Positions 3,412 to 31,149 of a stretch of 32,000 nt of DNA are shown here, piece after piece. Each line of letters opens with the position of its first letter. Within the stretch, counting starts at the first letter, position 1. The notes under the pieces are model-generated. The model was not told the origin of the DNA. It did not search any database and saw only the letters and a program-made list of their open reading frames with translations. This DNA comes from Mycolicibacterium smegmatis (GTDB taxonomy: Bacteria > Actinomycetota > Actinomycetes > Mycobacteriales > Mycobacteriaceae), in the NCBI RefSeq assembly GCF_001457595.1, contig NZ_LN831039.1, positions 2,370,001 through 2,402,000 of the forward strand, read 5' to 3'. Both the position numbers and the translations under genes were made by a program.

Positions 3412-4233
3412 CTAACGGCCCTGGAAGTCCGGATCACGCCGCTCGCGGAACGCCGCCAGGCCCTCCTTGAAATCGTGGGTGCGGCAGGACAGTTCGAGGT
3501 TGGACAGCTCCTGGTTCATGGACTGGATCAACGTGGCGTGCTGCCCGAACGCGATGGCCTGCTTGGCCAGCCCGATCGCGACCGTCGGACCCGACGCCAA
3601 CCGGTCGATGAGATCCTCGGCCGCGGTCTCGAGCTCGGCCGCGGGTACCGCGCCGTGGATCAGACCCCAGTCGGCGGCCTCGGTTCCGCTCACCTTCTCA
3701 CCGAGCAGCAGCATCTGCTTGGCCCGGGTCAGTCCGGCGAGGCGGGGGAGCAACCACGTCGCCCCGGAGTCCGGGCTGAACCCGCGGCTCAGGAACGGTT
3801 CCCAGAACGTGGCGTCGGCGTCGGCGACCGTGAAATCGGCCGCCAGGGCGAGGTTGCAACCGAGACCGACGGCCCAGCCGCGCACCGTGCACACGACCGG
3901 CAGTTGGATCGTCGCGACGAGTTCGACGATGCGGTGCGCGGCATGCGGGACGCGCCGAACCAGATCGCCCGTGCGGGGCCGATGGCCCGAACTGTTGGTG
4001 GCCACCCAGTCCGAGCCGGTGCAGAAGTGCTCGCCCGCGCCGCTGAGCGACACGGCCCGCAGCGAGTCGTCGCTCGCCGCCGCGGTCAGGGTTGTCACGA
4101 GTTCGCTGACCATGGTGTGGTCCAACGAGTTCCGCCGTGAGGGTCGATCCAGCACGATGCGCAGCACGGCGCCATCGCGGGTTACGGTCACCGAACCGTC
4201 GCTCACCAGCAGACCAGGCCTTTCCAGAGCCAT
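3412..4233 (-). CDS. Crotonase-fold protein, isomerase-like (PaaG-like PD.G segment)
   Basis: ORF 3412..4386 trimmed to ATG 4233 (MALERPGLLVSDGSVTVTRDGAVLRIVLDRPSRRNSL...). The upstream extension is AT-rich at third codon positions and contains the operator-like motif. An alternative ATG lies at 4245. Motifs: GLGCNLALAAD, FWEPFLSRGFSPDSGATW. Confidence 0.85.
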   Translation of the reverse strand: MALERPGLLVSDGSVTVTRDGAVLRIVLDRPSRRNSLDHTMVSELVTTLTAAASDDSLRAVSLSGAGEHFCTGSDWVATNSSGHRPRTGDLVRRVPHAAHRIVELVATIQLPVVCTVRGWAVGLGCNLALAADFTVADADATFWEPFLSRGFSPDSGATWLLPRLAGLTRAKQMLLLGEKVSGTEAADWGLIHGAVPAAELETAAEDLIDRLASGPTVAIGLAKQAIAFGQHATLIQSMNQELSNLELSCRTHDFKEGLAAFRERRDPDFQGR

Positions 4234-4251
4234 ACAGTTGCTCATACAGTA
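4233..4251. promoter_or_regulatory. Candidate TetR operator (weakest copy of the 19-bp palindrome)
   Basis: TACAGTTG-CTC-ATACAGTA, 12/16 to TACYGTAA-N3-TTACRGTA. It abuts or overlaps the start codon of 3412..4233, in the divergent region with 4504..5388. Confidence 0.45.
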
Positions 4252-4503
4252 GGCGATGCGGTTACTATCCTGTACAAGATAGCCAAAAAAGACCTCCGGC
4301 GGAACAGCGCCCGGAAGCGGGGTGCAGATGTCGCGTATCTGCGCCGGCATGTGCGCCGCACGTGGCGACCGGGCCGCCGAGGCCATGCCCTATCAGCAGG
4401 CCGAGATCGACCGGCAGAAGCACGGTTCGACGATGCCGCGCAGTACGTACCCAACGCGCCGGCGGTGGGAATCGACAAATCATTGAAGCGAGGTTGATGT
4501 CGA

Positions 4504-5388
4504 ATGACTGATGACAGGGTGCTGTTCGAGGTCGACGACGACCACCGCATAGCCACCATCACGCTCAACAATCCGAAGCAACGCAACTCGTATGACGCCG
4601 CGATGCGGGATCAACTGGCACGCTACCTCGACATCGTCGCCGAGGACGACGATCTGACCGTGGTGCTGCTGCGCGGGGCCGAAGGCGTGTTCAGTACCGG
4701 GGCGGACATGAACAACGCCTACGGGTGGTATGGCTCGAAGGCTGAGAACGGCAAAGCCGAACAAGAACAACCTAAGTCGCGGCCCAGTCAGCGCCGCAGG
4801 CTCACCGTCGACCGCAAGACGTTCGGCTTCTACCACAACTTCATGGGCTTCCCGAAGGTCACCGTGGGGGAGATCAGCGGTTTCGCGCTGGGCGGCGGTT
4901 TCGAGATGGCGCTGATGACCGACATCTCGGTGATCGCGCGCGACACCCGCATCGGCATGCCCGCCACACGCTTCCTGGGGCCTGCGCTGGGCAGTCTGCA
5001 CATGTTCTTCCACCGATTGGGGCCTGTGCTGGCGCGCCGGCTGCTGCTCACCGGCGACGTCATCGAGGCAGGCGCGATCGAGCACCTCGGCATCTTCACC
5101 GAGACGTGCGACGGTTCGCAGGTCGCCGCCCGTGCGCGGTACTGGGCGCAGAAGGCGGCAAAGATGCCCGCTGACGGTGTCGTGATCGCCAAGGAGGCGT
5201 TCCGACTGGTTGAGCAGAGTCAGGCGTATCAGGGCGAAGAGGTCGCCAGCTACCTGTTCCACGCGTACGGCACCAACCTGCAGTTCGCGCCGGGCGAGTT
5301 CAACTTCGTCAAAACCCGCGCCCAGCACGGCACCAAGGAGGCGTTTCGACTGCGTGACCAGCATTTTCATGTGCCGGAACCACAGTGA
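4504..5388 (+). CDS. Crotonase-fold protein (enoyl-CoA hydratase/isomerase family) with a charged insertion after the oxyanion loop
   Basis: ATG 4504 with GAGG upstream. MTDDRVLFEVDDDHRIATITLNNPKQRNSYD...GVFSTGADMNNAYGWYGSKAENGKAEQEQPKSRPSQRRRL...GFALGGGFEMALMTD. It has the first catalytic Glu only (IGMPATRFLG at the second position). Confidence 0.9.
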   Translation: MTDDRVLFEVDDDHRIATITLNNPKQRNSYDAAMRDQLARYLDIVAEDDDLTVVLLRGAEGVFSTGADMNNAYGWYGSKAENGKAEQEQPKSRPSQRRRLTVDRKTFGFYHNFMGFPKVTVGEISGFALGGGFEMALMTDISVIARDTRIGMPATRFLGPALGSLHMFFHRLGPVLARRLLLTGDVIEAGAIEHLGIFTETCDGSQVAARARYWAQKAAKMPADGVVIAKEAFRLVEQSQAYQGEEVASYLFHAYGTNLQFAPGEFNFVKTRAQHGTKEAFRLRDQHFHVPEPQ

Positions 5389-5441
5389 GCCCGTGAGCTG
5401 CTAACGTTACATCAGTACTCGATATCGTAAAGGTGAAAATC

Positions 5442-7633: not shown

Positions 7634-7652
7634 TACCGTAATCCCTATAGTA
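7634..7652. promoter_or_regulatory. Candidate TetR operator
   Basis: TACCGTAA-TCC-CTATAGTA (14/16), embedded in the palindrome GGATTACCGTAATCC. It lies between TetR-1 (start 7434) and the hydratase operon (start 7705). Confidence 0.6.
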
Positions 7653-7704: not shown

Positions 7705-8469
7705 GTGTCAGAAGAAGTAGTCCTGAGGGAGCGTCGTGATCGGACGCTCATCATCACGATCAACCGGCCGGAAGCGCGCAATGCGTTCAATCTCGCGGTG
7801 GCCAAGGGGCTTGCCGAGGCGGTCGACGAACTCGACGACACCCAAGAGCTTTCCGTGGGCATCATCACCGGTGCGGGTGGCACCTTCTGTGCCGGTATGG
7901 ATCTCAAGGGTTTCGCCTCCGGTGAGCTGCCGCACGTGCCGGGCCGCGGAATCGGCTTCACCGAGAAGCCGCCCCGCAAACCGCTCATCGCCGCGGTGGA
8001 AGGCTACGCGCTGGCGGGAGGCACCGAGATCGTGCTGGCCACCGACCTCGTCGTGGCGAGCAGGACCGCGAAGTTCGGCATCCCCGAGGTGAAGCGCGGA
8101 CTGGTCGCCGCGGGCGGCGGTCTGCTGCGGCTGCCCAAGCGCATCCCGTACCAGAAGGCGCTCGAGCTCGCGCTGACCGGTGACAACTTCACCGCCGAGG
8201 AGGCTGCCGCCTGGGGCTTCGTCAACAAGCTGACCGAGCCAGGAGAGGCGCTGGCCGGTGCCCTCGAGCTCGCCGAGCGCATCACCGCCAACGGCCCACT
8301 GGCCGTCGCGGTCACCAAGGAGGTGATCGTCAAGTCGGCCGAGTGGTCGGAGGCCGAGATGTGGAAGAAACAGGGTGAGTTGATCGGGCCGGTCTTCTCG
8401 TCGAAGGACGCGATCGAAGGCGCCACTGCGTTCGCCGAGAAACGCAAACCCAACTGGACAGGTTCCTGA
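7705..8469 (+). CDS. Enoyl-CoA hydratase (the only crotonase here with both canonical catalytic Glu)
   Basis: GTG 7705 preceded by GAAGGGG. MSEEVVLRERRDRTLIITINRPEARNAF...GGTFCAGMDLK, KPLIAAVEGYALAGGTEIVLATD, FGIPEVKRGL. Confidence 0.9.
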   Translation: MSEEVVLRERRDRTLIITINRPEARNAFNLAVAKGLAEAVDELDDTQELSVGIITGAGGTFCAGMDLKGFASGELPHVPGRGIGFTEKPPRKPLIAAVEGYALAGGTEIVLATDLVVASRTAKFGIPEVKRGLVAAGGGLLRLPKRIPYQKALELALTGDNFTAEEAAAWGFVNKLTEPGEALAGALELAERITANGPLAVAVTKEVIVKSAEWSEAEMWKKQGELIGPVFSSKDAIEGATAFAEKRKPNWTGS

Positions 8470-8478
8470 CCCACCGCG

Positions 8479-9276
8479 ATGGATCTCGGGTTCGGAGGCG
8501 CGGCCGCCGCAGTCGTCGGTGGTGGCCGCGGTATGGGATTCGCGACGGCGCAATGCCTGGCCGATGACGGTGCCCGCGTCGCCGTCATCGGGCGGTCGAA
8601 AGACGTCCTGGAGACCGCGGCATCGGATCTCGCGCGCCGCGGCAGCCCTGACGCCATCGCGATCGTCGCCGACACCGGTGATGCCGAGCAAGTCGAGCGC
8701 GCGTTCGCCGAGATCGGTGAACGGTGGGACGGCGAGCTCAACGTCCTGATCAACACCGTCGGCCCCGGCGCCGCAGGCGATTTCGAGGAGCTCACCGACG
8801 GGCAGTGGCAGGAGGCGTTCGACGCGGGCGTGATGGGCATGGTGCGGTGCGTCCGGGCCGCACTGCCGCTGCTGCGCAAGGCCGAGTGGGCGCGCATCGT
8901 CAACTTCTCAGCGCACTCCACGCAGCGGCAGAGCACCAGACTGCCCGCCTACACGGCCGCCAAGGCCGCGGTGAACAGCGTCTCGAAGAACCTGTCCCTG
9001 CTGCTGGCCAAGGACGAGATCATGGTGAACGTCGTCTCGCCGGGCAGCATCTCGTCGGAGGCGTTGGTGGGCTGGGCGGAATCGGTCGGCGTGGACGGCA
9101 GCGATCCGTACCAGTTGATGGCGGCCATCGACGAGCACTTCGGGCATCCCGCGCATCTGCCGCGTGCCGGTCTCCCGAGTGAGATCGGGCCGGTGGCAGC
9201 GTTTCTGGCGTCCAGGCGCAACTCGTACATGACCGGTGCGAACATCAACGTCGACGGCGGCAGTGACTTCACCTGA
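8479..9276 (+). CDS. Short-chain dehydrogenase/reductase (SDR)
   Basis: ATG 8479. Glycine-rich cofactor loop VVGGGRGMGFATAQCLADDGARVAVIGR. Catalytic YTAAKAAV (YxxxK). It starts 9 nt after the preceding hydratase. Confidence 0.88.
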   Translation: MDLGFGGAAAAVVGGGRGMGFATAQCLADDGARVAVIGRSKDVLETAASDLARRGSPDAIAIVADTGDAEQVERAFAEIGERWDGELNVLINTVGPGAAGDFEELTDGQWQEAFDAGVMGMVRCVRAALPLLRKAEWARIVNFSAHSTQRQSTRLPAYTAAKAAVNSVSKNLSLLLAKDEIMVNVVSPGSISSEALVGWAESVGVDGSDPYQLMAAIDEHFGHPAHLPRAGLPSEIGPVAAFLASRRNSYMTGANINVDGGSDFT

Positions 9277-9349
9277 AGAGCACGTCGTAGCAGGTCAAGG
9301 CCAGTTCACGGCCCCGTGTCGACATGGTCCGGAGGCTTGCGGAATGCTC

Positions 9350-9368
9350 TACCGATAGGTATACAGTA
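9350..9368. promoter_or_regulatory. Candidate TetR operator / internal promoter
   Basis: TACCGATA-GGT-ATACAGTA (13/16). It lies in the 136-bp gap between the SDR (stop 9276) and the crotonase at 9413. Confidence 0.55.
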
Positions 9369-9412
9369 TCTATGCCCGAACGGCCTTCGCAGCGTCAGGG
9401 GGTACCCGCACG

Positions 9413-10234
9413 GTGAGCGTCGCAGAAACCGGCACGAGCGATGCCGTGCGCTACGAGGTCAACGATGCCGGCGTCGCGGTGATCACGCTCAACCGCCCCG
9501 AGCGGCTCAACTCCTGGGGCGCCGACATCTCCGCCGGTGTCTACGCGAGCTTCGACCGCGCCGAGGCCGATCCGGCCGTGCGGGCGATCGTGCTGACCGG
9601 CACGGGGCGGGGGTTCTGCGCCGGCGCCTACATGGGTGAAATGGCCTCGCTCGGCGAATCGATCAGCGGCGACACCGATGTCAGCAAGATCGTCGGCGAG
9701 CGTCACCCGCATTTCCTCACCACGCTGCGCAAGCCGGTGATCGCCGCGATCAACGGCGCCTGCGTCGGCATCGGTCTGACCCACGCGTTGATGTGCGACA
9801 TCCGATTCGCCGCGGCAGGAGCCAAGTTCGCCACCGCATTCCCGCGCCGCGGGCTCATCGGGGAGTACGGCATCACCTGGATCCTGCCGCGCCTGGCGGG
9901 CTGGGGCGCCGCGGCGGACCTGCTGCTGTCAGGCCGGACGTTCCTCGCCGAGGAGGCCTTGCAGCTCGGTCTGGTCAAAGAAGTCGTCGAACCCGAGAAC
10001 CTGCTGACTCGCGCCCTGGAGTACGCCGAAGACCTCGCGCGCAACTGCTCACCGGCGTCGATGGCCGTCATCAAGCGTCAGCTCTACGGCGACGCGACCG
10101 ATGTGGTCACCGACGTCAGTGACCGCGCCGTGACGCTCATGCACGAATCGATGGTGCGTCCCGACCTCATCGAGGGCATCACCGCGTTCTTCGAGAAACG
10201 CCCACCGAACTTCCCGCCGCTCGCCGCCGAGTAA
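9413..10234 (+). CDS. Crotonase-fold protein (enoyl-CoA hydratase/isomerase family), both canonical Glu absent
   Basis: GTG 9413. VRYEVNDAGVAVITLNRPERLNSW...GRGFCAGAYMGE, KPVIAAINGACVGIGLTHALMCD, FATAFPRRGLIGEYG. Confidence 0.88.
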   Translation: MSVAETGTSDAVRYEVNDAGVAVITLNRPERLNSWGADISAGVYASFDRAEADPAVRAIVLTGTGRGFCAGAYMGEMASLGESISGDTDVSKIVGERHPHFLTTLRKPVIAAINGACVGIGLTHALMCDIRFAAAGAKFATAFPRRGLIGEYGITWILPRLAGWGAAADLLLSGRTFLAEEALQLGLVKEVVEPENLLTRALEYAEDLARNCSPASMAVIKRQLYGDATDVVTDVSDRAVTLMHESMVRPDLIEGITAFFEKRPPNFPPLAAE

Positions 10235-10248
10235 ACCAAAGGACCGCC

Positions 10249-11499
10249 ATGACCACCGACCCGGAACGGTTGCCCTACCTGGCCGTCGACGTCGACAACC
10301 ACTACTACGAACCACTGGATGCGTTCACACGACACCTGCCCAAGGAGTTCCGCAGCCGCGGAGTGCAGATGCTGACCGACGGCAAGCGCACGTACGCGGT
10401 GTTCGGCGGCGTGGTCAACCACTTCATCCCGAACCCGTCGTTCGACCCCATCATCGAACCGGGCTGCCTGGATCTGCTGTTCCGCGGCGAGGTTCCCGAA
10501 GGCGTCGATCCGGCGTCGCTGATGAAGGTCGACCGCCTGACCGACCATCCCGAGTACCAGAACCGCGATGCCCGGGTGGCGGTGCTGGACCGCCAGCGCC
10601 TGGAGACGGTGTTCATGCTGCCGACCTTCGCGTGCGGTGTCGAGGAGGGCCTCAAGCACGACATCGGCGCCACCATGGCATCGATCCACGCCTTCAACCT
10701 GTGGCTCGACGAGGACTGGGGCTTCGACCGTCCCGACGGCCGTATCATCGCCGCGCCGATCATCTCGCTGGCCGATCCCGAAAAGGCCGTCGGGGAAGTG
10801 GAATTCGTGCTCGGCCGCGGCGCCAAGCTTGTCTGCGTGCGGCCCGCACCGGTGCCGGGACTCGTGCGCCCGCGCTCACTGGGCGACCCCGTGCACGACC
10901 CGGTGTGGGCGCGCCTGGCCGAGGCCGGCGTGCCCGTGGTGTTCCACCTTTCCGACTCCGGGTACATGGCGATCCCCGCACTGTGGGGAGGTAGCGGGGT
11001 GTTCAAGGGCTTCGGCAAGCGCGACCCGCTGGACATGGTGATCATGGACGACCGCGCCATCCACGACACCATCGCCTCGATGATCGTGCACCAGGTGTTC
11101 ACGCGGCATCCGAAACTCAAAGTCGTCAGCATCGAGAACGGGTCGTACTTCGTCTACCGACTCATCAAGCGGCTCAAGAAATCCGCCAACAACGCGCCGT
11201 ACCACTACAAGGAAGATCCGGTCGAGCAGCTCAAGAACCACGTGTGGATCGCGCCGTACTACGAGGACGACGTCAAGCTGCTCGCCGACACCATCGGCGT
11301 GGACAAGATACTGTTCGGCTCGGACTGGCCGCACGGGGAAGGCCTGGCGGATCCGACCTCTTTCACCGCCGACATCCCACAGTTCCCCGAATTCAGCCAC
11401 GAGGACACCCGTAGGGTCATGCGGCACAACGCACTGGAACTGCTCGGCGACCCCGACCGCACCGCGCCGGGCGCGCGTCACCTGGCCGCCTCGGTGTAG
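10249..11499 (+). CDS. Amidohydrolase_2 (PF04909-type metal-dependent hydrolase/decarboxylase fold), long form
   Basis: ATG 10249 with AAAGGA upstream. The N-terminal metal motif region is AVDVDNHYYEP and the C-terminal region is LFGSDWPHGEGLADP. It is a paralogue of 16274..17509. Confidence 0.85.
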   Translation: MTTDPERLPYLAVDVDNHYYEPLDAFTRHLPKEFRSRGVQMLTDGKRTYAVFGGVVNHFIPNPSFDPIIEPGCLDLLFRGEVPEGVDPASLMKVDRLTDHPEYQNRDARVAVLDRQRLETVFMLPTFACGVEEGLKHDIGATMASIHAFNLWLDEDWGFDRPDGRIIAAPIISLADPEKAVGEVEFVLGRGAKLVCVRPAPVPGLVRPRSLGDPVHDPVWARLAEAGVPVVFHLSDSGYMAIPALWGGSGVFKGFGKRDPLDMVIMDDRAIHDTIASMIVHQVFTRHPKLKVVSIENGSYFVYRLIKRLKKSANNAPYHYKEDPVEQLKNHVWIAPYYEDDVKLLADTIGVDKILFGSDWPHGEGLADPTSFTADIPQFPEFSHEDTRRVMRHNALELLGDPDRTAPGARHLAASV

Positions 11500-11502
11500 C
11501 CG

Positions 11503-13131
11503 ATGCCCGAGTGGACGATAGGCGGTGTCGTCGACGCCATCGCCGAGGCCGTTCCGGACCGCGAGATGACGGTGTGCGGCGCGCGCCGCACAACGTTCGC
11601 GCAGGGCGCCGACCGCACACGCCGGATCGCCAATTTCCTTGCCGGCCAAGGACTGGGCGCGCACCGCGAACGCCGCGAGCTCAACCGGTGGGAGTGCGGC
11701 CAGGACCGTGTCGCGCTCATCATGCACAACGACCAGTACCCGGACCTGGTGATCGGATGCCTCAAGGCGCGCACCGTGCCGGTCAATGTCAACTACTACT
11801 ACTCGCCGCGCGAGGTCGCCGAACTGCTGGATCATCTGCGGCCCAGCGCCGTGGTGTACCACCGTTCCCTCGGAGCGAAATTCGCCGACGTGCTGCCGCC
11901 GCGGAGCGCGCGCCTGCTGATCTGCGTCGACGACGGACCCGGACCCGACCTACCGGGTGCGATCCCGCTCGACGACGCACTGGCACAAAGTGGTTCGGAC
12001 TGTGTGGCGCCCGCATCCCCCGACGATTTGCTGATGATCTGCACGGGTGGCACCACCGGCAGGCCCAAGGCGGTCATGTGGCGCCAGGGCGACATCTACG
12101 TGTCATCGATGAACGGCGCCGACCACGACGACGCATCCGAGATCCACGCCAAGGTCGCCAACGCGGGTCCACCGTGGTTCGCGGTGTCGCCGCTCATGCA
12201 CGCCGCCGGCCTGTGGACGGCGTTCTCGGGTCTGCTCTCCGGGCAGACCGTCGTACTTCACGACACCAAGCCGAGATTCGATCCACGCGCGGTGCTCGAG
12301 ACCGCCGAGCGCGAGAAGGTCGGACTGATGACCATGGTGGGCGACGCGTACGCGGCGCCGATCGTCGAGGAACTTCGCCGCCGCACCTACGATCTGTCGT
12401 CGCTGTTCGCGATCGGCACCGGCGGCGCGGCCACCAACCTCAAACATCAGCAGGCGCTGTTGGACCACATCCCGCAGATCACGCTGATCAACGGCTTCGG
12501 ATCGTCGGAGACCGGCAACATGGGCTTCGGCCACAGTCAGCGGGGAAACCACGCCGAGACGTTCCAGTTGCGGGCCGGCGGGTTGGTGCTGGCCGAGGAC
12601 CACTCGCGGTTTCTGACGCCGGGGGAGCAGGGTGTGGGCTGGGTCGCGCGCAACGGCCGGATCCCGTTGGGCTACTTCGACGATGAGGCCGCCACCGCCA
12701 ACACCTTCCCCGAGGTCGAGGGGCAACGGGTCGTCGTCTCCGGCGACCGCGCTGCGTTGGAGGCCGACGGCACCCTGCGCCTGTACGGCCGTGACTCGCT
12801 CGTGGTCAACACCGGCGGCGAGAAGGTGTTCGTCGAAGAGGTCGAAGAAGTGCTGCGGGCCCACGCCGCGGTTGCCGACGCGCTGGTGGTCGGCAGACCC
12901 AGTGAACGCTGGGGTGAGGAGATCGTGGCGATCGTGGCGTTGCGGGACAACCACGGTTCGGACCATGACGTGACGGGCGAGGCACTGCGCGAGCACTGCT
13001 CGACGCGGCTGGCACGGTTCAAGACGCCCAAGGACGTGATGTTCGTCGAACAGGTCCGCAGGCTGGGGAACGGGAAGGCCGACTACCGGTGGGCGAAAGC
13101 CCATGCCGCGCAACGGGTGGAGATGGCATGA
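11503..13131 (+). CDS. Acyl-CoA synthetase (AMP-dependent ligase, FadD-like)
   Basis: ATG 11503, 3 nt after the stop of the preceding gene. LLMICTGGTTGRPKAVMWRQGDIY, GSSETG, GDRAALEADGTLRLYGRDSLVVNTGGEKV, LGNGKADYRWA. It is a paralogue of 26393..28045. Confidence 0.92.
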   Translation: MPEWTIGGVVDAIAEAVPDREMTVCGARRTTFAQGADRTRRIANFLAGQGLGAHRERRELNRWECGQDRVALIMHNDQYPDLVIGCLKARTVPVNVNYYYSPREVAELLDHLRPSAVVYHRSLGAKFADVLPPRSARLLICVDDGPGPDLPGAIPLDDALAQSGSDCVAPASPDDLLMICTGGTTGRPKAVMWRQGDIYVSSMNGADHDDASEIHAKVANAGPPWFAVSPLMHAAGLWTAFSGLLSGQTVVLHDTKPRFDPRAVLETAEREKVGLMTMVGDAYAAPIVEELRRRTYDLSSLFAIGTGGAATNLKHQQALLDHIPQITLINGFGSSETGNMGFGHSQRGNHAETFQLRAGGLVLAEDHSRFLTPGEQGVGWVARNGRIPLGYFDDEAATANTFPEVEGQRVVVSGDRAALEADGTLRLYGRDSLVVNTGGEKVFVEEVEEVLRAHAAVADALVVGRPSERWGEEIVAIVALRDNHGSDHDVTGEALREHCSTRLARFKTPKDVMFVEQVRRLGNGKADYRWAKAHAAQRVEMA

Positions 13132-13982: not shown

Positions 13983-13986
13983 GGCC

Positions 13987-15036: not shown

Positions 15037-15061
15037 GACGCAGGTCGAACAGGAAGCCCAC

Positions 15062-17509: not shown

Positions 17510-17533
17510 GTCGGTCGGTTCCTTTTTTCTTGC

Positions 17534-17594
17534 GCGAGCAGACGCGAAACTGCGCATTTTTCTTTCGAAAGAGGGCAGGTTTGCGTCTGCTGGC
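17534..17594. repeat. REP-like palindromic intergenic element, copy 1
   Basis: The arms are GCGAGCAGACGCGAAAC (17534..17550) and GGTTTGCGTCTGCTGGC (17578..17594), 14/17 complementary plus a G-T wobble. It lies inside the operon between the Ltp-like gene stop (17603) and the amidohydrolase start (17509). It shares CGCGAGCAGACRCRAARCTG with copies 2 and 3. Confidence 0.75.
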
Positions 17595-17602
17595 ATGGAA
17601 GT

Positions 17603-18751: not shown

Positions 18752-18885
18752 GTTTCAGCCCCTTCCCGATGTGCAAGTGAAGGTGATTTCGTCGGTCCGG
18801 CCCAATGGCACTGTGCCGTCCTGCATGGCGCCGTCCTTCCGCGAAAAGTCTCGTCACACGAGCCGTCGAACCAAAAGGGTATAGC

Positions 18886-18904
18886 AACTGTAACTCTTAC
18901 AGTA
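18886..18904. promoter_or_regulatory. Candidate TetR operator
   Basis: AACTGTAA-CTC-TTACAGTA (15/16), with a perfect inverted repeat ACTGTAA/TTACAGT. It lies directly upstream of the MopB start candidates, in the divergent region with the Ltp-like gene. Confidence 0.65.
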
Positions 18905-18906
18905 AT

Positions 18907-22718: not shown

Positions 22719-22723
22719 GTTTT

Positions 22724-23491: not shown

Positions 23492-23493
23492 GC

Positions 23494-24702: not shown

Positions 24703-24730
24703 CGCGTACCCCTTCCCGTTCAGGGCATAT

Positions 24731-24749
24731 TACCGTAAAGGTTACAGTA
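24731..24749. promoter_or_regulatory. Candidate TetR operator (best copy)
   Basis: TACCGTAA-AGG-TTACAGTA (16/16). It lies 29 nt upstream of the GTG of the P450-TetR-2 operon, in the divergent region with ALDH 24922. Confidence 0.7.
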
Positions 24750-24921: not shown

Positions 24922-26409
24922 ATGAGCACGATCGACCAACGCGCGGAAAAGCATTCCCGGCAGGGCGGAGCGGCCGACGTGCTGACGGCGCAGCGCCGCT
25001 CCTTTCTCGACGACGGGCCGCCCGATATCGCGCTGCGGCGCAACCGCATCGACCGCCTGCTCGCGATGGTGCTCGACAACGCGGAGGATTTCGTCACGGC
25101 GACCGCGTCCGACTACGGGACACGGTCACGGTCGGCGGCGTTCTTCGCCGAGATCCTCGGCATGATCTCGGTGATCGAGCACACCAGATCGAACCTGCCG
25201 CGGTGGATGCGCTCGACCCGGCTCATGCGCGCGGCGCGTCTGGCCGGGTTACGCGCCGAGGTGGTGCCCTCACCGGTCGGCGTGGTCGGCGTCATCGGTC
25301 CGTGGAATTTCCCGGTCCAGTTGACGGTGCTGCCCGCAGCCGCCGCGTTCGCGGCGGGCAACCGCGTGATGATCAAGATGTCGGAGGTCACCCCACGCAC
25401 GGCGGAGGCGATGGCCGATCTCGCACCGCGCTACTTCGACCAACGCGAACTCGCTGTCATCACCGGTGGCCCTGAGCTAGCCGCCGAGTTCTCCGCTCTG
25501 CCGTTCGATCACCTGTTCTTCACCGGATCACCCGCGATCGGCGCTGTGGTGGGCCGGGCGGCCGCCGCGAACCTCGTGCCGGTGACGCTCGAACTCGGCG
25601 GCAAGAACCCGGTGGTCGTCGCGCCGGGGGCCGATATCACCCGGGCCGCGACACGAATAGCCCAGGCGCGCATGGTCAACGGCGGGCAGGTGTGCGTCTG
25701 CCCCGACTACGTGTTCGTCCCGGACCGCCATGTCGACGAATTCGTCGAGGTGGCCCGCGGCACGCTGCGCCGGATGTTTCCCACCATCACCGACAATCCC
25801 GACTACTGCTCGTCGGTCAACCGGTCCAACTTCGACCGCGTCGTCGGGCTCATCGCAGACGCACGAGCTCGCGGCGCCCGGGTCGAGTCGATCGTGCCGG
25901 TCGGCGAGGTCCTTCCCGACCCGGTGACCCGCAAGATCCCGCCGACCATCATCCGCGATGTCGACGACCGGATGCGCATCAACGACGAGGAGGTCTTCGG
26001 CCCGGTGCTCGCGGTGCGCGGTTATTCGTCGCTCGCGTCCACGATCGACTACATCAACTCACGACCGTCACCCCTGGTGGCCTACTGGTTCGGTCCCGAT
26101 GACGCCGACTTCCGGCATTTCGTCGACCACACGCGCAGCGGTGGCGTGGCGCGCAATGACTTTGCCGCCCACATGATCCCGTCGTCCGCGCCGTTCGGGG
26201 GAGTGGGGCGCAGCGGCATGGGCGCCTATCACGGCAAGGCCGGGTTCGACGCGTTCAGCCACCACCGCACCGTAGTCGGAACCGATCTGCCGTTCAGCAT
26301 CACCGGGCGCGCGGCCCTGCCGTTCACCGGATCGATGCGGGTGAGCGCCGACCTGGCGCTGTGGCGCGCCCGCAGCCGAACCAAAAACCGGCTCAGGAAG
26401 TTTCGCTGA
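24922..26409 (+). CDS. Aldehyde dehydrogenase, class-3 / coniferyl-aldehyde-dehydrogenase-like
   Basis: ORF 24751..26409 trimmed to ATG 24922 (GGGAGG Shine-Dalgarno 8 nt upstream). The 57-codon extension has A/T-rich third positions. GPWNFPVQL, FFTGSPAIG, LELGGKNPVVVAP, NGGQVCVCPDYVFV. Confidence 0.9.
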   Translation: MSTIDQRAEKHSRQGGAADVLTAQRRSFLDDGPPDIALRRNRIDRLLAMVLDNAEDFVTATASDYGTRSRSAAFFAEILGMISVIEHTRSNLPRWMRSTRLMRAARLAGLRAEVVPSPVGVVGVIGPWNFPVQLTVLPAAAAFAAGNRVMIKMSEVTPRTAEAMADLAPRYFDQRELAVITGGPELAAEFSALPFDHLFFTGSPAIGAVVGRAAAANLVPVTLELGGKNPVVVAPGADITRAATRIAQARMVNGGQVCVCPDYVFVPDRHVDEFVEVARGTLRRMFPTITDNPDYCSSVNRSNFDRVVGLIADARARGARVESIVPVGEVLPDPVTRKIPPTIIRDVDDRMRINDEEVFGPVLAVRGYSSLASTIDYINSRPSPLVAYWFGPDDADFRHFVDHTRSGGVARNDFAAHMIPSSAPFGGVGRSGMGAYHGKAGFDAFSHHRTVVGTDLPFSITGRAALPFTGSMRVSADLALWRARSRTKNRLRKFR

Positions 26410-28045
26410 GCGCCTGCTCGCGGGCCCACCGATAGTCGGCCTTGCCCGCCGGGCTGCGTTCGATGGCAGGTCGGAACACGACGGCCTTCGGCAGCTTGTA
26501 CCGTGCGATGGAACCGTCGGCGTGGCGGATCAACTCGTCGGCGTCGACCTGCGCGCCGTCGTCGACGGCGACCACGGCCACGACCTCCTGACCCCAGCGC
26601 TCGCTGGGCCTGCCCGCGACCACCACGTCACGCACCGCGGGATGCGACGCGATGGCCGCCTCGACCTCTTCGGCGAAGACCTTCTCGCCGCCGGAGTTGA
26701 TGGTCACCGAGTCGCGGCCGAGCAGTTCGATCATGCCGCCGTCGAGTTGGCGGGCACGGTCGCCGGGGATGGCGTAACGCACGCCGTCGATGACCGGGAA
26801 CGTGGCAGCGGTCTTGGCCGCGTCGCCCTTGTAGCCGAGCGGGACATACCCGCGCTGTGCGAGCCATCCGAGTCCGTCGTGTGCCTCGGGCAGCACACAG
26901 CTGAAATCCTCGGCCACCACGCAGGTGTCGGGACCGGCCTTGAACGTCCCGGTGGAGACCGCGCCGGGCGCGGACATGTGGCTCATCTGCGCACCGGTCT
27001 CCGACGAGCCGACGCCGTCGACCACGATCAGGTTGGGCTTGGAATCGATCAGCTGCTGTTTGACATGCGGGGTCAACTGCGCGCCGCCGTTGGCGATGAC
27101 GGAAAGTGAAGACACATCGACGGTGCCGTTCTGGATGCCGCTGCGGATCGCGTCGAGCAGCGGGCGGGCCATCGTGTCACCCACCACGGTGGCCACCAGC
27201 ACCTGCTCGCGTTCGATCGTGCGCACGACGTCCTCGGCGTCGAACCGGTCGGTCACATCGGGGAAGACCAGCGTCTGCCCGGTGGTCACCGCGGTCATCG
27301 CCGCCCACTGCGCGGCGCCGTGGATCAGGGGCGGCAGGATCATGAGCCTGGTGCCGGGGTTCTCGACGGCCCTGTCGACAATCTCGTCGACCGACGTCGC
27401 TGCCTCACCGGTCATCATGTTGCGTCCGCCGAATGCGGTCATGAAGATGTCGTGCTGGCGCCACAACACACCCTTGGGCATACCCGTGGTGCCGCCGGTG
27501 TACAGCACGTAGAGGTCATCGGGGCACGGCTGCACCGGCGGGGCGGCCGTCTCGAGATTCACGATCTGCTCGTAATCGACAGCGCCGTCGAGAAGTTCGT
27601 TGCCCGAACCGTCGGCGATCTGGATGAGCACCCGCAGCGTGGGAAGCTCGTCGCGGATCTCGGCGATGCGGGGCGCGAACGTCGCGTGGTACACCAGTGC
27701 GGTCGCCCCGGCGTCGGTCAGCAGGTAGTGCAGTTCGTTCTTGACGTAGCGGTAGTTGACGTTGAACGGTGCGACTCGCGCGCGGAACGATCCGAGCATC
27801 GACTCGACGTATTCGGGGCCGTTGTGGGCGTAGATGCCCAGCAGGTCCTGGCCCACCTCGTGGCCGGCCAGCCCGTCGCGCTCTGTGTGCACACCGAGAC
27901 CCTGCGAATGCAGATACGACGCAAGCCGATTCGACCGGTCCATGACCTGGCGGTAGGTGTGACGACGTTCGCCCTGGACGATCAACGGGCGGTCGGGAAT
28001 GGCGGCGGCGACGGCCTCGGCCACAGCGGGGACGGTGAACAGCAC
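26393..28045 (-). CDS. Acyl-CoA synthetase (AMP-dependent ligase, FadD-like)
   Basis: ORF 26393..28165 trimmed to GTG 28045 (GAGGAG Shine-Dalgarno 5 nt upstream). This start aligns with the N-terminus of paralogue 11503..13131. YVLYTGGTTGMPKGVLWRQHDIF, GSSETG, SPAGKADYRWA. Confidence 0.9.
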   Translation of the reverse strand: MLFTVPAVAEAVAAAIPDRPLIVQGERRHTYRQVMDRSNRLASYLHSQGLGVHTERDGLAGHEVGQDLLGIYAHNGPEYVESMLGSFRARVAPFNVNYRYVKNELHYLLTDAGATALVYHATFAPRIAEIRDELPTLRVLIQIADGSGNELLDGAVDYEQIVNLETAAPPVQPCPDDLYVLYTGGTTGMPKGVLWRQHDIFMTAFGGRNMMTGEAATSVDEIVDRAVENPGTRLMILPPLIHGAAQWAAMTAVTTGQTLVFPDVTDRFDAEDVVRTIEREQVLVATVVGDTMARPLLDAIRSGIQNGTVDVSSLSVIANGGAQLTPHVKQQLIDSKPNLIVVDGVGSSETGAQMSHMSAPGAVSTGTFKAGPDTCVVAEDFSCVLPEAHDGLGWLAQRGYVPLGYKGDAAKTAATFPVIDGVRYAIPGDRARQLDGGMIELLGRDSVTINSGGEKVFAEEVEAAIASHPAVRDVVVAGRPSERWGQEVVAVVAVDDGAQVDADELIRHADGSIARYKLPKAVVFRPAIERSPAGKADYRWAREQALSETS

Positions 28046-28064
28046 AGGGACTCCTCGGCGTCGG

Positions 28065-28682
28065 TCAAGGCTGCCAGATCTGCAGCAGTTGGTCGGTGGA
28101 GGTGACGGTGGCCAACAGCGACAGGGTGTTGTCGATGACGGCGTCGGCATAGTCGGTCGGCACACCCGCGACCGCGTCGCGCGGCAGCACCACGTGATAG
28201 CCCGCGTTGACCGCGTCCATCACCAGGTTGGTGATCGCCACGTTGACCGAGACCCCGACCGCGACGATCGTGGTCACGCCGAGGTTGCGCAAGACTGCGT
28301 CGAGGTCGGTACCGCCCATCGGTCCCAGGCCGTGCCATCGCGTGAGCACGAGATCCCCTGCCTCGGGCCCCAGTTCGGGCAGCAGCGCGGCACCGGGGGT
28401 GCCAGGTGCGATCGCGACGTCGTTGCGGCCGATTGCGAAGATCTTCGCGTTGCGGTTGGAGCCCAGGCCGTCCGGCCTGCGCTGGACCAGGCAGTGCACC
28501 ACGTGCACAGAGGCCGCGCGGGCGGCGGGCAACAGCCGCTTGATGTTCGGTAGGGCGACACGCTGCGCCTCGTCGGCGAGTGCCCGCAGACCGGCGTCGG
28601 GACCGATGACCGCACCCTGGCACTCCTGGGTGACCACCGCGGTGCGGCCGGGTGTCACCAACTCGCGCACATCGATCCTCAT
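28065..28682 (-). CDS. Isochorismatase-fold (cysteine-hydrolase superfamily) protein lacking the nucleophile Cys
   Basis: ORF 28065..28913 trimmed to ATG 28682, which overlaps the Rieske stop as ATGA. MRIDVRELVTPGRTAVVTQECQGAVIG..., GVTTIVAVGVSVNVAITNLVMDAVNAGYHVVLPRDAV. Confidence 0.8.
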   Translation of the reverse strand: MRIDVRELVTPGRTAVVTQECQGAVIGPDAGLRALADEAQRVALPNIKRLLPAARAASVHVVHCLVQRRPDGLGSNRNAKIFAIGRNDVAIAPGTPGAALLPELGPEAGDLVLTRWHGLGPMGGTDLDAVLRNLGVTTIVAVGVSVNVAITNLVMDAVNAGYHVVLPRDAVAGVPTDYADAVIDNTLSLLATVTSTDQLLQIWQP

Positions 28683-29695
28683 CCGCGGGGCAGCGCCGTC
28701 TCGACGGGAGGTACCTCGTAGAACTGCGTGGCCCATTTGCGCATGGCCATATAGGGTTTGGCGTCGATCTTGGCGAGCGCCGGATGCTCGACGTACTTCT
28801 GGTAGCGCCAGATGTCGCAGTCCTCCCACACGGTTTTGAGGAACTGCTTCTCGACCTTGGCCCGGACGTGTTCGGGCGGGATGTCGGAGGCACCACCGGG
28901 TTCTTTGGGCCACCAGATCGAATAGAACATGTCCGACACCTCATCGTCGACGGGGGTGCACGCGAAGATCAGGCGGTGGTTGGAGGAGCCCTCGAACGCG
29001 CTCATGGAGAAACCCAACCCGGAGAAGTGGCTGTGGATGCGCAGGGCCATCTTGTTCGGGTCGTCGCTGCGGGCGTCGGGCCACCCGGTCAGGAAGCGCC
29101 ACTCCTCGTCCACGTGTTCCCAGTGCAGGCACACCGGGGTGACCGTCGCGCCGTGCACGTAGCGGAAATGCGAGCTGTCCGGCCCGTTCTCGGCCACGAT
29201 CTGCGGATGCACCGGGATGGCGTCGGCCCGGCTGGAGAACTCCGGGTAGGGCCGGTAGTAGGCGTTCGGGTCGGTGTTGAACTGCGGGAACTTGTGAAAG
29301 ATGTCGGGCAGTTCCCACTGCGGCTCTTTGCCGTGCGGCTGGTACCACATGAAGATGCAGCCGTACTGCTCCTGAACGGGGTATGACCGCAAGCGCAGGC
29401 CCCGGTTCGGCTTGTCCGGCTGATAGGGGATGTAGGTGTTGGTGCCCTCGGGGCCCCACCGCCAGCCGTGGAACGGGCACTCGATGCACTCACCGACGAC
29501 CTTGCCTCCGTGACCGATGTGCGCGCCCAGGTGCTTGCAGTGCGCCTCCAGCACGTGCAGATGCCCGGACTCGTCGCGGTAGGCCGCGAGATCCTCGCCG
29601 AAGTACTTGAGTGCCTTGACCTCACCGACCGGGTATTCCGCCGACCACCCGATCATGAACCATCCGGTGACCTTCCAGGTGAACGGCACCTTCAT
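28679..29695 (-). CDS. Rieske [2Fe-2S] non-heme-iron oxygenase, KshA-like (3-ketosteroid 9-alpha-hydroxylase oxygenase family)
   Basis: ORF 28679..29794 trimmed to ATG 29695 (AGGAGG Shine-Dalgarno). The Rieske motif is CKHLGAHIGHGG...CPFHGWRWGPEG. The mononuclear iron motif is ENGPDSSHFRYVH (E-x3-D-x2-H-x4-H). The C-terminal DCDIWRYQKY...MRKWATQFY resembles the KshA tail. Confidence 0.88.
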   Translation of the reverse strand: MKVPFTWKVTGWFMIGWSAEYPVGEVKALKYFGEDLAAYRDESGHLHVLEAHCKHLGAHIGHGGKVVGECIECPFHGWRWGPEGTNTYIPYQPDKPNRGLRLRSYPVQEQYGCIFMWYQPHGKEPQWELPDIFHKFPQFNTDPNAYYRPYPEFSSRADAIPVHPQIVAENGPDSSHFRYVHGATVTPVCLHWEHVDEEWRFLTGWPDARSDDPNKMALRIHSHFSGLGFSMSAFEGSSNHRLIFACTPVDDEVSDMFYSIWWPKEPGGASDIPPEHVRAKVEKQFLKTVWEDCDIWRYQKYVEHPALAKIDAKPYMAMRKWATQFYEVPPVETALPRG

Positions 29696-29724
29696 GATCA
29701 CTGCCTCCTGCGACTCCCGGCACT

Positions 29725-29743
29725 TACGGAAGAAGTTACAGTA
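29725..29743. promoter_or_regulatory. Candidate TetR operator upstream of the Rieske operon
   Basis: TACGGAAG-AAG-TTACAGTA (13/16). It is also part of three direct TTACNG hexamers at 29724, 29736 and 29748 (12-bp spacing), 30 nt upstream of ATG 29695. Confidence 0.5.
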
Positions 29744-29776
29744 GCGATTACCGCACCGGGAAGGGTTGTGCCTTTT

Positions 29777-29843
29777 CACCGCGAGCAGACGCAAAGCTGT
29801 CGGTTTCTGGGCGCGAACCCGCAGGTATGCGGTCTGCTCGGTG
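29777..29843. repeat. REP-like palindromic intergenic element, copy 3
   Basis: The arms are CACCGCGAGCAGACGCA (29777..29793) and TGCGGTCTGCTCGGTG (29828..29843), imperfect with one-base indels. It sits between the two operator-like sites of the Rieske/SnoaL divergent region. Confidence 0.7.
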
Positions 29844-29891
29844 AGGAAAGTTAGGGGTGGCGATGTTCCGTACGCGAGGAGAAGCGGGCCG

Positions 29892-29910
29892 TACGGTATA
29901 CATTTCGGTA
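29892..29910. promoter_or_regulatory. Candidate TetR operator upstream of the SnoaL-like gene
   Basis: TACGGTAT-ACA-TTTCGGTA (13/16 to the reverse-complement form TACYGTAA-N3-TTACRGTA). It lies 17 nt upstream of ATG 29927 and abuts its Shine-Dalgarno. Confidence 0.5.
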
Positions 29911-29926
29911 ACCGGAAGAGGAGACC

Positions 29927-30373
29927 ATGTCTGACGATCTCGAGGCCATCAAACGGCTCAAGGCACGGTACTGCCGACTGTTGGACACCAAGGACATCGA
30001 GGCGTGGCGCACATTGTTCGCCGACGACGTCGTCGTCACCCTGGACATGGCGGTGTCGACAGGAGGCGCCGATCCCCAGACCGCACCGCCCCTACATGGG
30101 TTCGACGAATTCCTCCCGGTGGTGTGGGGTGGCGTCGAGCATGCGGCGACGGTGCACCACTGCCACACCCCGGAGATCGACCTCACCTCCGGTACGACGG
30201 CATCGGGCATCTGGGCGATGGAGGACATGCTGTTCTTCCCCGACGGCAGCGAGTTACACGGCGCGGGCCACTACCACGAGACCTACGAAAAACGTGACAG
30301 CACATGGGTGATCACCAGCCTGCACCTGACCCGGACGCTCCTGAAGTTCAAAGCTGCCCAGCGCGACACCTGA
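29927..30373 (+). CDS. SnoaL-like / NTF2-fold protein
   Basis: ATG 29927 with GGAAGAGGAG Shine-Dalgarno. MSDDLEAIKRLKARYCRLLDTKDIEAWRTLFADDVV... and ...GHYHETYEKRDSTWVITSLHL are typical of SnoaL_4-type small alpha+beta barrel proteins. Confidence 0.75.
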   Translation: MSDDLEAIKRLKARYCRLLDTKDIEAWRTLFADDVVVTLDMAVSTGGADPQTAPPLHGFDEFLPVVWGGVEHAATVHHCHTPEIDLTSGTTASGIWAMEDMLFFPDGSELHGAGHYHETYEKRDSTWVITSLHLTRTLLKFKAAQRDT

Positions 30374-30375
30374 AA

Positions 30376-31038
30376 TCAGCTGAGAAATACCGGAACCCGC
30401 GCATCACTCGTGACAAGGTCCGCCTCTTCCGCAGGTGTCGGCGGCCGGCGTCCGGTGCCGACCAGAAGCGCGTCGGCATCAGGCCACGAGGCGGGAAGTG
30501 GTGAGCCCGCTATCGATTCCAACAGCTTTCGGGAGAAGGCCAGCCCTTCGGCCGGCGGCGGCGCCGTGTCGGGAAGGTGCGCGATCAGGTCGAGATGGTG
30601 CAGCGTCCACTCGAGCACGTAGGCGCCGAGATAGTCGCGGACCGTCAGCACCTGACCTCGAGTGCCGACCCGCGCCTCGGGGTCGGCGAGTGCGGCGGCC
30701 CGTCCGGCTGCCGAGCCGACGTCGTCGAGATGGAACTTCAGCAACGACGGGTCACCGTAGGCCGCCGCGAGCCGCACGGTCAGCGCGCTGAGTGGGTCCA
30801 CCGGGTCGTCGGGGGGCAGTGCCTCGGCGACCTCCCAATAGGTCACGGCATTCCGCGTGGGCGGCGAGTCGTCGGGCGTGGCGAGGGTGATGAGGACGTC
30901 CTGAGCGTCGATGATCAGGTGGCACACCAGGTCACGGATCAGCCAGCCTGCACAGCCGGACGGCCTGTCGAACTGTTGATCGTCGAGGCCGGCGACAGCC
31001 GCACGCAGCGCCGCCCAACAACCGCCGAACCGATCCAC
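30376..31038 (-). CDS. DinB-like / mycothiol-dependent maleylpyruvate isomerase N-terminal domain family protein
   Basis: GTG 31038. WAALRAAVAGLDDQQFDRPSGCAGWLIRDLVCHL is the usual N-terminal signature of actinobacterial MDMPI_N/DinB proteins. It is convergent with 29927..30373 (2-nt gap). Confidence 0.7.
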   Translation of the reverse strand: MDRFGGCWAALRAAVAGLDDQQFDRPSGCAGWLIRDLVCHLIIDAQDVLITLATPDDSPPTRNAVTYWEVAEALPPDDPVDPLSALTVRLAAAYGDPSLLKFHLDDVGSAAGRAAALADPEARVGTRGQVLTVRDYLGAYVLEWTLHHLDLIAHLPDTAPPPAEGLAFSRKLLESIAGSPLPASWPDADALLVGTGRRPPTPAEEADLVTSDARVPVFLS

Positions 31039-31130
31039 ACTCCGAACGTAGCAGCGGGTCCATGGTGTACTCCATCGTCACGCTGCCCACGCGTGCCCGG
31101 AACCGATGTTTTCACCGATTCAGCCAGTCG

Positions 31131-31149
31131 TACTGTAAACGCTACCGTA
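31131..31149. promoter_or_regulatory. Candidate TetR operator
   Basis: TACTGTAA-ACG-CTACCGTA (14/16). It lies in the divergent region between the DinB-like gene (start 31038) and the epimerase gene (start 31188). Confidence 0.55.

Follow-up and report, generated by a model that had tools for sequence, protein, structure and literature searches.

Mycolicibacterium smegmatis carries more than 100 TetR-family regulators, most of which have no known operator, regulon or ligand. Two paralogous members, denoted here TetR1 and TetR2, are encoded in a 32,000-nt stretch of its genome (contig NZ_LN831039.1, positions 2,370,001 to 2,402,000; this whole stretch is called the window below), and a first-pass annotation of this DNA had picked out eight copies of an AT-rich 19-bp palindrome in the promoter regions of the same stretch. 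This raises the question of what the palindrome is and which protein reads it. We find that the element is conserved across the genus and accompanies a particular TetR subfamily, and we propose that it is probably the operator of that small subfamily of TetR-type repressors, which comprises TetR1 and its paralogue TetR2 in M. smegmatis.

All eight 19-mers were found where the first-pass annotation had placed them and with the match counts it had given (Table 1), and their consensus is the 19-bp element TAC-N-GTA-A-N3-T-TAC-N-GTA. The pattern TACYGTAANNNTTACRGTA, searched with up to 3 mismatches, has 7 matches in the window, as compared with 0.02 expected from 100 dinucleotide-preserving shuffles; the eighth site, at 4233, has 4 mismatches to this pattern, and site 24731 matches the originally described pattern perfectly. 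A symmetrised position weight matrix (PWM) derived from the eight window sites scores them at 22-30 bits, while the runner-up position in the 32 kb reaches 17.1 and is itself a 12-bp-shifted register overlapping site 29725. Exact TACNGTA heptamers occur ten times in the window, all ten inside the eight sites and hence all in intergenic DNA, which makes up 5% of the sequence. We also enumerated, as an unbiased check, every inverted dyad of 3-5 bases with spacers of 0-15 and tested each for intergenic enrichment. The top-ranked dyad was TAC-N1-GTA (10/10 occurrences intergenic, p 1e-13), followed by TAC-N13-GTA (7/7) and GTA-N5-TAC (5/5), and all three are parts of the proposed motif. The motif is therefore far above chance and confined to intergenic DNA, as had been claimed. 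Rfam contains no known RNA element that matches at the sites.

Seven of the eight sites recur at orthologous positions in 86 related loci, the exception being 29892. These loci include 80 around TetR1 orthologues of the Mycobacteriaceae (77-94% identical to TetR1) and five around TetR2 orthologues (80% down to 60% identical to TetR2), from M. wolinskyi, Mycobacterium sp. 48b, M. fortuitum, M. frederiksbergense and M. adipatum (L081-L083, L085 and L086). With the PWM, nearly every one of the 80 TetR1 loci was found to have counterparts of sites A (7634), B (9350) and C (4233) in the orthologous places. Site A, found in 78 of them, carries close to 2 bits of information at TAC, GTA and TTAC, with flanks at about 0.3 bits. 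Site B is a near-invariant TACTGTATACCTATCGGTA among 73 distinct orthologous sequences (mean information content 1.89, compared with 0.3-0.4 in the flanks), and site C, which most of the 80 loci carry as TACTGTATGGGCAACTGTA some 3-9 kb downstream of TetR1, has a mean information content of 1.65 over 60 distinct sequences, compared with 0.5-0.7 in its flanks. Over 1.6 Mb of sequence (83 loci) the PWM finds 251 matches of at least 18 bits, where first-order Markov simulations yield 0-1. Conservation of site positions in orthologous loci, another check suggested by the first-pass annotation, is thus evident: the sites are kept and their flanks are not.

The five TetR2 loci have conserved synteny, and each of them carries strong sites in the same three places: upstream of the cytochrome P450 gene that precedes TetR2 (scores 29.5-32.1), beside the Rieske gene towards a divergent SnoaL-like or short-chain dehydrogenase/reductase (SDR) gene, and between the operon of the aldehyde dehydrogenase (ALDH) or molybdenum (Mo) enzyme and the thiolase operon. 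Site 18886 is identical at its orthologous place in L081-L083 and has close variants in L085 and L086, and the third heptamer of site 29725, which creates the shifted register, also scores in L082 and L083. A counterpart of site 31131 stands beside the epimerase gene in M. wolinskyi (L081) and M. fortuitum (L083), the region being not comparable in the other three. For site 29892 none of the five TetR2 loci shows an equivalent, so this site may be specific to M. smegmatis.

Runs of three heptamers at exact 12-bp phase were observed at 29725-29755 and 4233-4263 of the window and at 7932-7962 and 9912-9942 of locus L084; each run contains two overlapping 19-bp registers with a common middle heptamer. 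The heptamer TACNGTA reads the same on both strands, and an inverted arrangement therefore looks just like a direct one.

The motif accompanies the TetR subfamily into different genomic surroundings. A third clade is represented by P0188 of M. heckeshornense, which is about 60% identical to both paralogues and has different neighbours, namely genes for an acyl-CoA dehydrogenase (ACAD), a thiolase, a thiamine pyrophosphate enzyme and FadD, inserted in the purD-ggtA region. Directly 5' of the P0188 gene lie three TACNRTA heptamers in 12-bp phase, and three more lie 5' of the divergent thiolase gene. Since this clade, with its different neighbours, carries heptamer arrays as well, the motif appears to be tied to the TetR subfamily, which supports its original designation as a candidate TetR operator. 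A palindromic motif was found in silico in the own or divergent promoter region of the regulator in every clade (TetR1-ech in 78/80 loci, P450-TetR2 in 5/5, and the third-clade gene). In an alignment of 34 members from the three clades, the recognition helix VGVTSIYWYFR is invariant, as are residues R9, R11, R12, R14, G15, S16 and I17 of the N-terminal basic arm; the invariant helix and arm mirror the invariant TAC/GTA positions of the DNA.

TetR1 and TetR2 are 54% identical and have, as noted earlier, a nearly identical helix-turn-helix region, with the common segment LSMPxLxKHLxVGVTSIYWYFRxKDDLL; the coordinates first given for TetR1, 6682-7434, should read 6682-7419, with a GTG start. The TetR_N domain (PF00440) scores 48.7 bits in TetR1 and 42.3 bits in TetR2 (cut-off 24), and both proteins also exceed the cut-off for TetR_C_1 (PF02909). 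An AlphaFold2 model of TetR1 (pLDDT 79.6, 11 helices) is matched best by TetR(D)/(B), with TM scores of 0.6-0.7 at 21-25% identity, and the top 50 PDB matches of the model are tetracycline repressors, engineered derivatives of these and one uncharacterised Streptomyces TetR-family regulator. The closest sequences of solved structure are TetR class A (E 2e-15), engineered TetR derivatives, SimR and ActR. Helix-turn-helix domain, TetR_C_1 domain and overall fold all place these proteins in the TetR family. The tetracycline repressor equivalog of NCBIfam (NF010319) gives 76.7 and 66.1 bits, so far from its cut-off of 265 that we regard TetR1 and TetR2 as relatives of TetR and not as tetracycline repressors.

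What the palindrome might control can be read from its neighbours. By Pfam, the window encodes six crotonases, four acyl-CoA synthetases, two thiolases (one of SCPx type), an adjacent pair of acyl-CoA dehydrogenases, three Amidohydro_2 proteins, a P450, a molybdoenzyme, a KshA-like Rieske oxygenase followed by an isochorismatase-family protein, two aldehyde dehydrogenases, an SDR, a SnoaL-like protein and a 3-beta-hydroxysteroid dehydrogenase (3-beta-HSD)/epimerase-like protein, a content that identifies it as a predicted catabolic cluster. The only regulator genes that Pfam detects in the window are the two TetRs. The sites cover 12 transcription units, in line with the earlier suggestion that the motif ties together essentially every operon of the window. 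A published RNA-seq table puts TetR1 at a logCPM (log counts per million) of 6.5, whereas the cluster genes reach 1-3 or were filtered out of the list, and MSMEG_2227-2234 have very low read counts; MSMEG_2237 had the lowest expression among the genes assayed in another study (PMC7816997). These levels fit a cluster that is repressed in culture.

Because the eight palindromes front nearly every operon and are conserved genus-wide, they are very probably binding sites of the two TetRs. The 8+3+8 bp arrangement puts the half-site centres 11 bp apart and therefore suits one dimer, as the first-pass annotation had argued, and it resembles the 7+3+7 operator of SimR. We propose that each operator would take up one dimer, whose two helix-turn-helix motifs would enter successive major grooves, and that further contacts, in the minor groove, are probably made by the invariant N-terminal arginine arm (R-x-R-R-E-R-G-S-I), as in SimR. 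The mycobacterial -10 consensus is TANNNT, and each TACNGTA reads TACNGT on both strands, which fits it. With most sites 8-52 nt ahead of a start codon, which suits a short leader, the repressor once bound would mask the -10 region or start of one promoter or of two divergent ones, and a single operator between diverging genes could serve both directions. About 12 transcription units of a ~30-kb catabolic cluster would in this way be held silent, including those for the P450, the KshA-like Rieske oxygenase, aldehyde and alcohol dehydrogenases, the four acyl-CoA synthetases, the six crotonases, the paired ACAD proteins, the two thiolases, the three amidohydrolase_2 enzymes and the molybdoenzyme. 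A hydrophobic substrate or pathway intermediate would then bind the TetR_C_1 domain and cause release of the repressor.

Several observations weigh against this proposal, at least in its simplest form. For these genes, the one transcription start site found among those listed in the supplement of PMC6448022 is an unrelated antisense start, and the overlap of operators with promoters is something we infer. Two of the 80 TetR1 loci have no site upstream of TetR1. Site A lies ~215 nt from the TetR1 start (7419) in M. smegmatis and at a variable 33-408 nt in other species, being anchored to the ech promoter, and TetR1 has conserved -10-like elements and a leader of its own; autoregulation of TetR1 in M. 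smegmatis is therefore uncertain. The notion that both TetR promoters carry a copy of the motif holds for site 24731, upstream of P450-TetR2, and is uncertain for site 7634, which is anchored to the divergent ech promoter. Finally, each of the three sites near TetR1 has one conserved degenerate half-site (TACTATAG, TACCGATA and TACAGTTG), and the sites of the TetR2 zone are near-perfect palindromes. Because of these degenerate halves, the paralogues may differ partly in preference and not use one shared code.

The region upstream of TetR1 has a structure of its own. Most of the 80 loci carry three conserved non-coding blocks there (~7481-7564, minus-strand sense). The first, CTACCGGTAAGGTTGAC, contains the -10-like TAAGGT and resembles the motif plus one extra base; the second is the leader GCGACACGC..GCAGTTCAG, and the third, CCGGTA(G/A)ATTC, is again -10-like. 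Several uncultured lineages, known from metagenome-assembled genomes, have site A in the place of the first block. In the mc2 155 annotation a 171-nt open reading frame, MSMEG_2226 (7397-7567, minus strand), runs across the TetR1 start and leader. It is situated within this conserved non-coding sequence and is unlikely to be a real gene.

The degenerate half-sites also lead to the alternative that survives best, namely that the paralogues divide the sites between them and form two adjacent regulons. TetR1 would then act on the asymmetric sites 4233, 7634 and 9350 (TACTGTAT-N3-YWWCNGTA), and TetR2 on the near-perfect palindromes from 18886 to 31149 (TACNGTAA-N3-TTACNGTA). The two sets do differ systematically, position 8 being T in the conserved sites of the TetR1 zone and A in those of the TetR2 zone, with the one degenerate half a constant feature of the former. 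The distribution of the proteins points the same way: TetR2 is confined to a subset of fast growers, and the TetR1 loci of species beyond the fast-growing clade, among which no TetR2 orthologue turned up, mostly carry the first type of site. TetR1 and TetR2 also differ in helix alpha-2 (L/Q, G/A, G/D). However, their recognition helix and arginine arm are identical, and a single PWM captures both sets of sites with overlapping scores. We therefore consider such a division a serious but less likely possibility.

It is also possible that the palindrome is the operator of another regulator encoded elsewhere, for example of GntR, MarR or IclR type, and that the TetR genes are mere members of its regulon. 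The inner GTAA-N3-TTAC is loosely like the GT-Nx-AC cores of GntR-type operators, and site A keeps its place relative to the ech promoter, not to TetR1. Yet the motif follows the TetR subfamily into three genomic contexts, including the third clade with its unrelated neighbours, while no other regulator gene is conserved in the TetR2 and third-clade loci examined, and the invariant recognition helix parallels the invariant TAC/GTA positions. Such a regulator is improbable. About as improbable, or slightly more so, is that the element is a promoter alone and no repressor is involved, whether as a conserved pair of -10-like boxes or as the target of an alternative sigma factor. TACNGT fits TANNNT, and the deviant half-site of site A, TATAGT, is an even better -10 box that is conserved across 78 loci. 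But the 12-bp start-to-start spacing is impossible for a -35/-10 pair, and each of the 16 specified positions of the dyad is conserved, also A8/T12 and the outer A19/T1, which lie beyond any hexamer. Moreover, ordinary promoters of the same loci have no such footprint, and the cluster is silent in culture despite its apparently good -10 boxes. Chance clustering of AT-rich words, for which one could invoke the relatively AT-rich intergenic DNA of high-GC genomes, is refuted by the 7 matches found against 0.02 expected and by the conservation of the sites, but not of their flanks, at orthologous positions in over 80 genomes.

We then compared the proposed TetR1/TetR2 operator with known systems. 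One with a similar geometry is SimR of Streptomyces antibioticus, whose operators OX and OR have the form TTCGTAC-GGT-GTATGAA (7+3+7) and whose arginine-rich N-terminal arm makes minor-groove contacts that extend the footprint to about 21 bp (PMC3241653). SimR is likewise of TetR_C_1 type and related in sequence (E 1.6e-9), it has an odd-length operator with a 3-bp spacer and a GTA core, and its arginine arm has a likely parallel in the invariant RRERGSI arm of TetR1 and TetR2. In contrast, its half-site sequence is different and one base shorter than the 8-bp half-sites found here, the identity to SimR is low, and SimR serves one efflux pump through two operators, whereas here there are at least eight candidate operators over a ~30-kb catabolic cluster. 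TetR with tetO is the best structural match of the model and the best NCBIfam and PDB sequence match, and it also uses one dimer on one palindromic operator over divergent promoters, as proposed here; but tetO is a 15-bp core of another sequence, and there is no efflux pump in the present cluster.

In overall design the system is like KstR and KstR2, TetR-family repressors with many palindromic operators over a large lipid or steroid catabolic cluster, organised alike across the genus, whose genes are silent until a pathway intermediate appears. Their boxes, TnnAACnnGTTnnA and AnCAAGnnCTTGnT, differ from our motif, the window TetRs are of a different subfamily (TetR_C_1), and the gene content is another one. 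The KstR box has 0 matches in the window and the KstR2 box 0 matches at up to 1 mismatch, which agrees with the earlier statement that the motif is neither of the two.

We also considered HpoR (Rv0767c, MSMEG_5860) and the palindrome called motif X, which was found before 14 operons of a phytosterol-induced regulon in Mycobacterium sp. VKM Ac-1817D and proposed for the Rv0767c orthologue (PMC6593523); motif X is similar to the motif of Rv0767c itself. Here, too, a TetR repressor is located near P450, ALDH and SDR genes, and a third steroid-related regulon was proposed. The footprinted box of HpoR, however, is GGACANNTGTCC (PMC5909442), its sites are depleted in TAA/TTA, and in the window this box has a single 1-mismatch match, within a coding region, compared with 1.39 expected by chance. 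We therefore rejected HpoR and motif X as the known counterpart. KstR3 of Mycolicibacterium neoaurum, from the operon atf1-chsH4-chsE6-kstR3, for which no operator was reported (PMC10398937), is a third TetR repressor of sterol-related genes, and its operon includes a thiolase-like aldolase and a DUF35 protein, and some of the orthologous loci studied here have a pair of DUF35 and SCPx-type thiolase genes beside a site. Its operon is nevertheless different; this comparison covers the operons, and KstR3 may or may not belong to the TetR1/TetR2 subfamily.

A 2015 survey of mycobacterial TetR regulators gives motifs only for regulators with M. tuberculosis orthologues, and by gene context none of its motif-bearing regulators corresponds to TetR1 or TetR2. 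In the open-access literature searched, MSMEG_2225, MSMEG_2226 and MSMEG_2239 appear in no main text, only MSMEG_2228, 2234, 2237 and 2242 are mentioned, and incidentally, and a literal search for the motif gave irrelevant matches only; the operator and its regulon are undescribed there. A set of 'MSMEG_2243-2247 carotenoid genes' in a sigF paper does not agree with the window genes and is probably a misprint.

Which compound this cluster handles can be guessed only in outline. One tentative scenario, which we rate as possible but not likely, is a genus-wide regulon by which an alicyclic, sterol-like or terpenoid-like compound is broken down, under two or three paralogous repressors with one operator code; TACNGTA would be a -10 box for both directions, and a single bound dimer would thereby close two divergent promoters together. 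The enzyme set would be an unusual one: a molybdoenzyme, a KshA-like oxygenase, a P450, three amidohydrolases of lactonase/decarboxylase type and, in relatives, a Baeyer-Villiger-type monooxygenase. A gene for this flavin monooxygenase follows the epimerase gene in M. wolinskyi (L081 1-1344) and M. fortuitum (L083 1-299); together with the three Amidohydro_2 genes it hints at ring cleavage via a lactone. Several species, M. smegmatis not among them, have a DUF35 (ChsH2-like) gene ahead of the SCPx-type thiolase gene.

The sites and genes are listed in Table 1; adding 2,297,612 to a window coordinate gives the mc2 155 coordinate, as matched to the gene coordinates of a published M. smegmatis mc2 155 table, and both TetRs have identical or almost identical matches among M. 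smegmatis proteins. Two gene starts of the first-pass annotation needed correction: the ATG overlapping site 4233 is not the start of the enoyl-CoA hydratase gene, whose conserved start is the GTG at 4206, and the ALDH gene downstream of site 24731 begins at 24922 and not at 24751. A leaderless transcript from site 4233 was considered and rejected, because orthologues have the ATG in another frame or a stop codon after it.

Table 1. Candidate operators and cluster genes in the window.
Feature	Coordinates	Strand	Sequence or product	Context	PWM score (bits)
Site C	4233..4251		TACAGTTGCTCATACAGTA	27 nt 5' of the true GTG start (4206) of the minus-strand ech-ech-ech-FadD operon	22.0
Site A	7634..7652		TACCGTAATCCCTATAGTA	Divergent TetR1 <> ech (MSMEG_2227) region; 52 nt 5' of the ech start codon	23.9
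Site B	9350..9368		TACCGATAGGTATACAGTA	44 nt 5' of ech MSMEG_2229, first gene of the ech-amidohydrolase-FadD-amidohydrolase-ACAD-ACAD operon	23.6
Site 18886	18886..18904		AACTGTAACTCTTACAGTA	Between SCPx-type thiolase operon (-) and Mo-oxidoreductase MSMEG_2237/ALDH operon (+); edge 8 nt from annotated start 18913	27.4
Site 24731	24731..24749		TACCGTAAAGGTTACAGTA	29 nt 5' of P450-TetR2 operon (-); 173 nt 5' of ALDH MSMEG_2242 (+)	30.2
Site 29725	29725..29755		TACGGAAGAAGTTACAGTA and third heptamer TACCGCA 12 bp on	5' of Rieske (KshA-like)-isochorismatase-FadD operon (-); edge 29-36 nt from nearest start codon	25.9; shifted register 17.1
Site 29892	29892..29910		TACGGTATACATTTCGGTA	17 nt 5' of SnoaL-like gene MSMEG_2245	24.0
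Site 31131	31131..31149		TACTGTAAACGCTACCGTA	Between MDMPI/DinB-like MSMEG_2246 (-) and epimerase/3-beta-HSD-like MSMEG_2247 (+, start 31188); edge 39 nt from nearest start codon	27.7
MSMEG_2224	5433-6617		Thiolase
TetR1 (MSMEG_2225)	6682-7419	-	245 aa, GTG start	Candidate repressor
MSMEG_2227-2230	from 7705	+	ech, SDR, ech, amidohydrolase
MSMEG_2235	from 16274	-	Amidohydrolase
MSMEG_2237	from about 18913	+	Molybdopterin oxidoreductase
TetR2 (ABK74346.1, probably MSMEG_2239)	22751-23491	-	246 aa	Second gene of the P450 operon; candidate repressor
MSMEG_2242	24922-26409	+	ALDH
MSMEG_2244-2247	28679 onwards		Rieske, SnoaL-like, MDMPI-like, epimerase
Putative target operon	355..4206	-	Three crotonase-family genes and acyl-CoA synthetase (Pfam)	Site C upstream
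Putative target operons MSMEG_2227-2228 and MSMEG_2229-2234	7705..16252	+	ech, SDR; and ech, amidohydrolase_2, FadD, amidohydrolase_2, two ACAD (Pfam)	Sites A and B upstream
Putative divergent target operons	16274..22718	- and +	Amidohydrolase_2 and SCPx-type thiolase (-); Mo-oxidoreductase MSMEG_2237 and ALDH (+) (Pfam)	Site 18886 between
Further putative target units	24922..32000		ALDH MSMEG_2242; FadD-isochorismatase-Rieske (-); SnoaL-like; MDMPI-like; epimerase/3-beta-HSD-like (Pfam)

Some of these regions hold further elements. The TACAGT box of site B is preceded, at a distance of 19 nt, by a conserved TTGCGG. Site C is adjoined by a conserved block at 4252-4290 (CTTTCCTTGCTAACTTGTACAAGATAGTAACCGCATCGCC in orthologues), which contains TGTACA and, on the other strand, a TACTAT box; the 70-nt flank that holds it has a mean information content of 0.72, above that of the other flanks. 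This block may serve as promoter for the divergent ech-thiolase operon (4504-6617), which lacks a site of its own. Some fast growers (e.g. L003, L007, L012, L014, L016 and L017) have site C ~9 kb and not 3.7 kb downstream of TetR1, and therefore ~5 kb of extra genes inserted in their cluster. Between site 24731 and the ALDH start, the DNA is untranslated over a long distance and includes a short GC-rich hairpin-like repeat at 24783-24806 (CACCGGAGGTCGGCCTCCTCACCGG) and, at 24843-24861, a degenerate copy of the motif (reverse complement TCCGGTGAGGCCAACGGTA, PWM 8.5) ~60 nt upstream of MSMEG_2242. A counterpart of this copy (TCCGGTAAGGCTAACGGTA, PWM 13.6-17) is kept in L081-L083 and L086, and the element is possibly a low-affinity operator.

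Two side observations concern transcripts of the cluster. A published RNA-seq table for a planar polycyclic G-quadruplex ligand shows a rise of MSMEG_2242 (log2 fold change 1.8) and MSMEG_2247 (1.4), and the paper of that table reports MSMEG_2242 to be up with both BRACO-19 and TMPyP4; by analogy with the LfrR example in the same paper, this rise could reflect promiscuous induction of a TetR regulator. On the minus strand at 10342-10439 there is a full-length Rfam match to the mycobacterial small RNA Ms_AS-1 (RF02463, 120 bits), antisense to the amidohydrolase gene MSMEG_2230 within a putative target operon.

The design proposed here, in which a TetR repressor acts on a catabolic cluster through multiple palindromic operators, is of a very well-known kind, and the general understanding of TetR regulation is unchanged by it. 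For one conserved TetR subfamily, however, we can now name an explicit candidate operator, about 12 putative target operons and more than 80 species with conserved sites. The operator-repressor pair could also become an orthogonal switch for mycobacterial genetics. The motif marks out a silent 30-kb catabolic cluster, MSMEG_2215/2219-2247, which includes the orphan molybdoenzyme MSMEG_2237, and loss of the repressors should switch this cluster on and so offer a direct route to its substrate. The chief value of the finding is therefore the handle that it gives on an orphan, genus-wide catabolic cluster.

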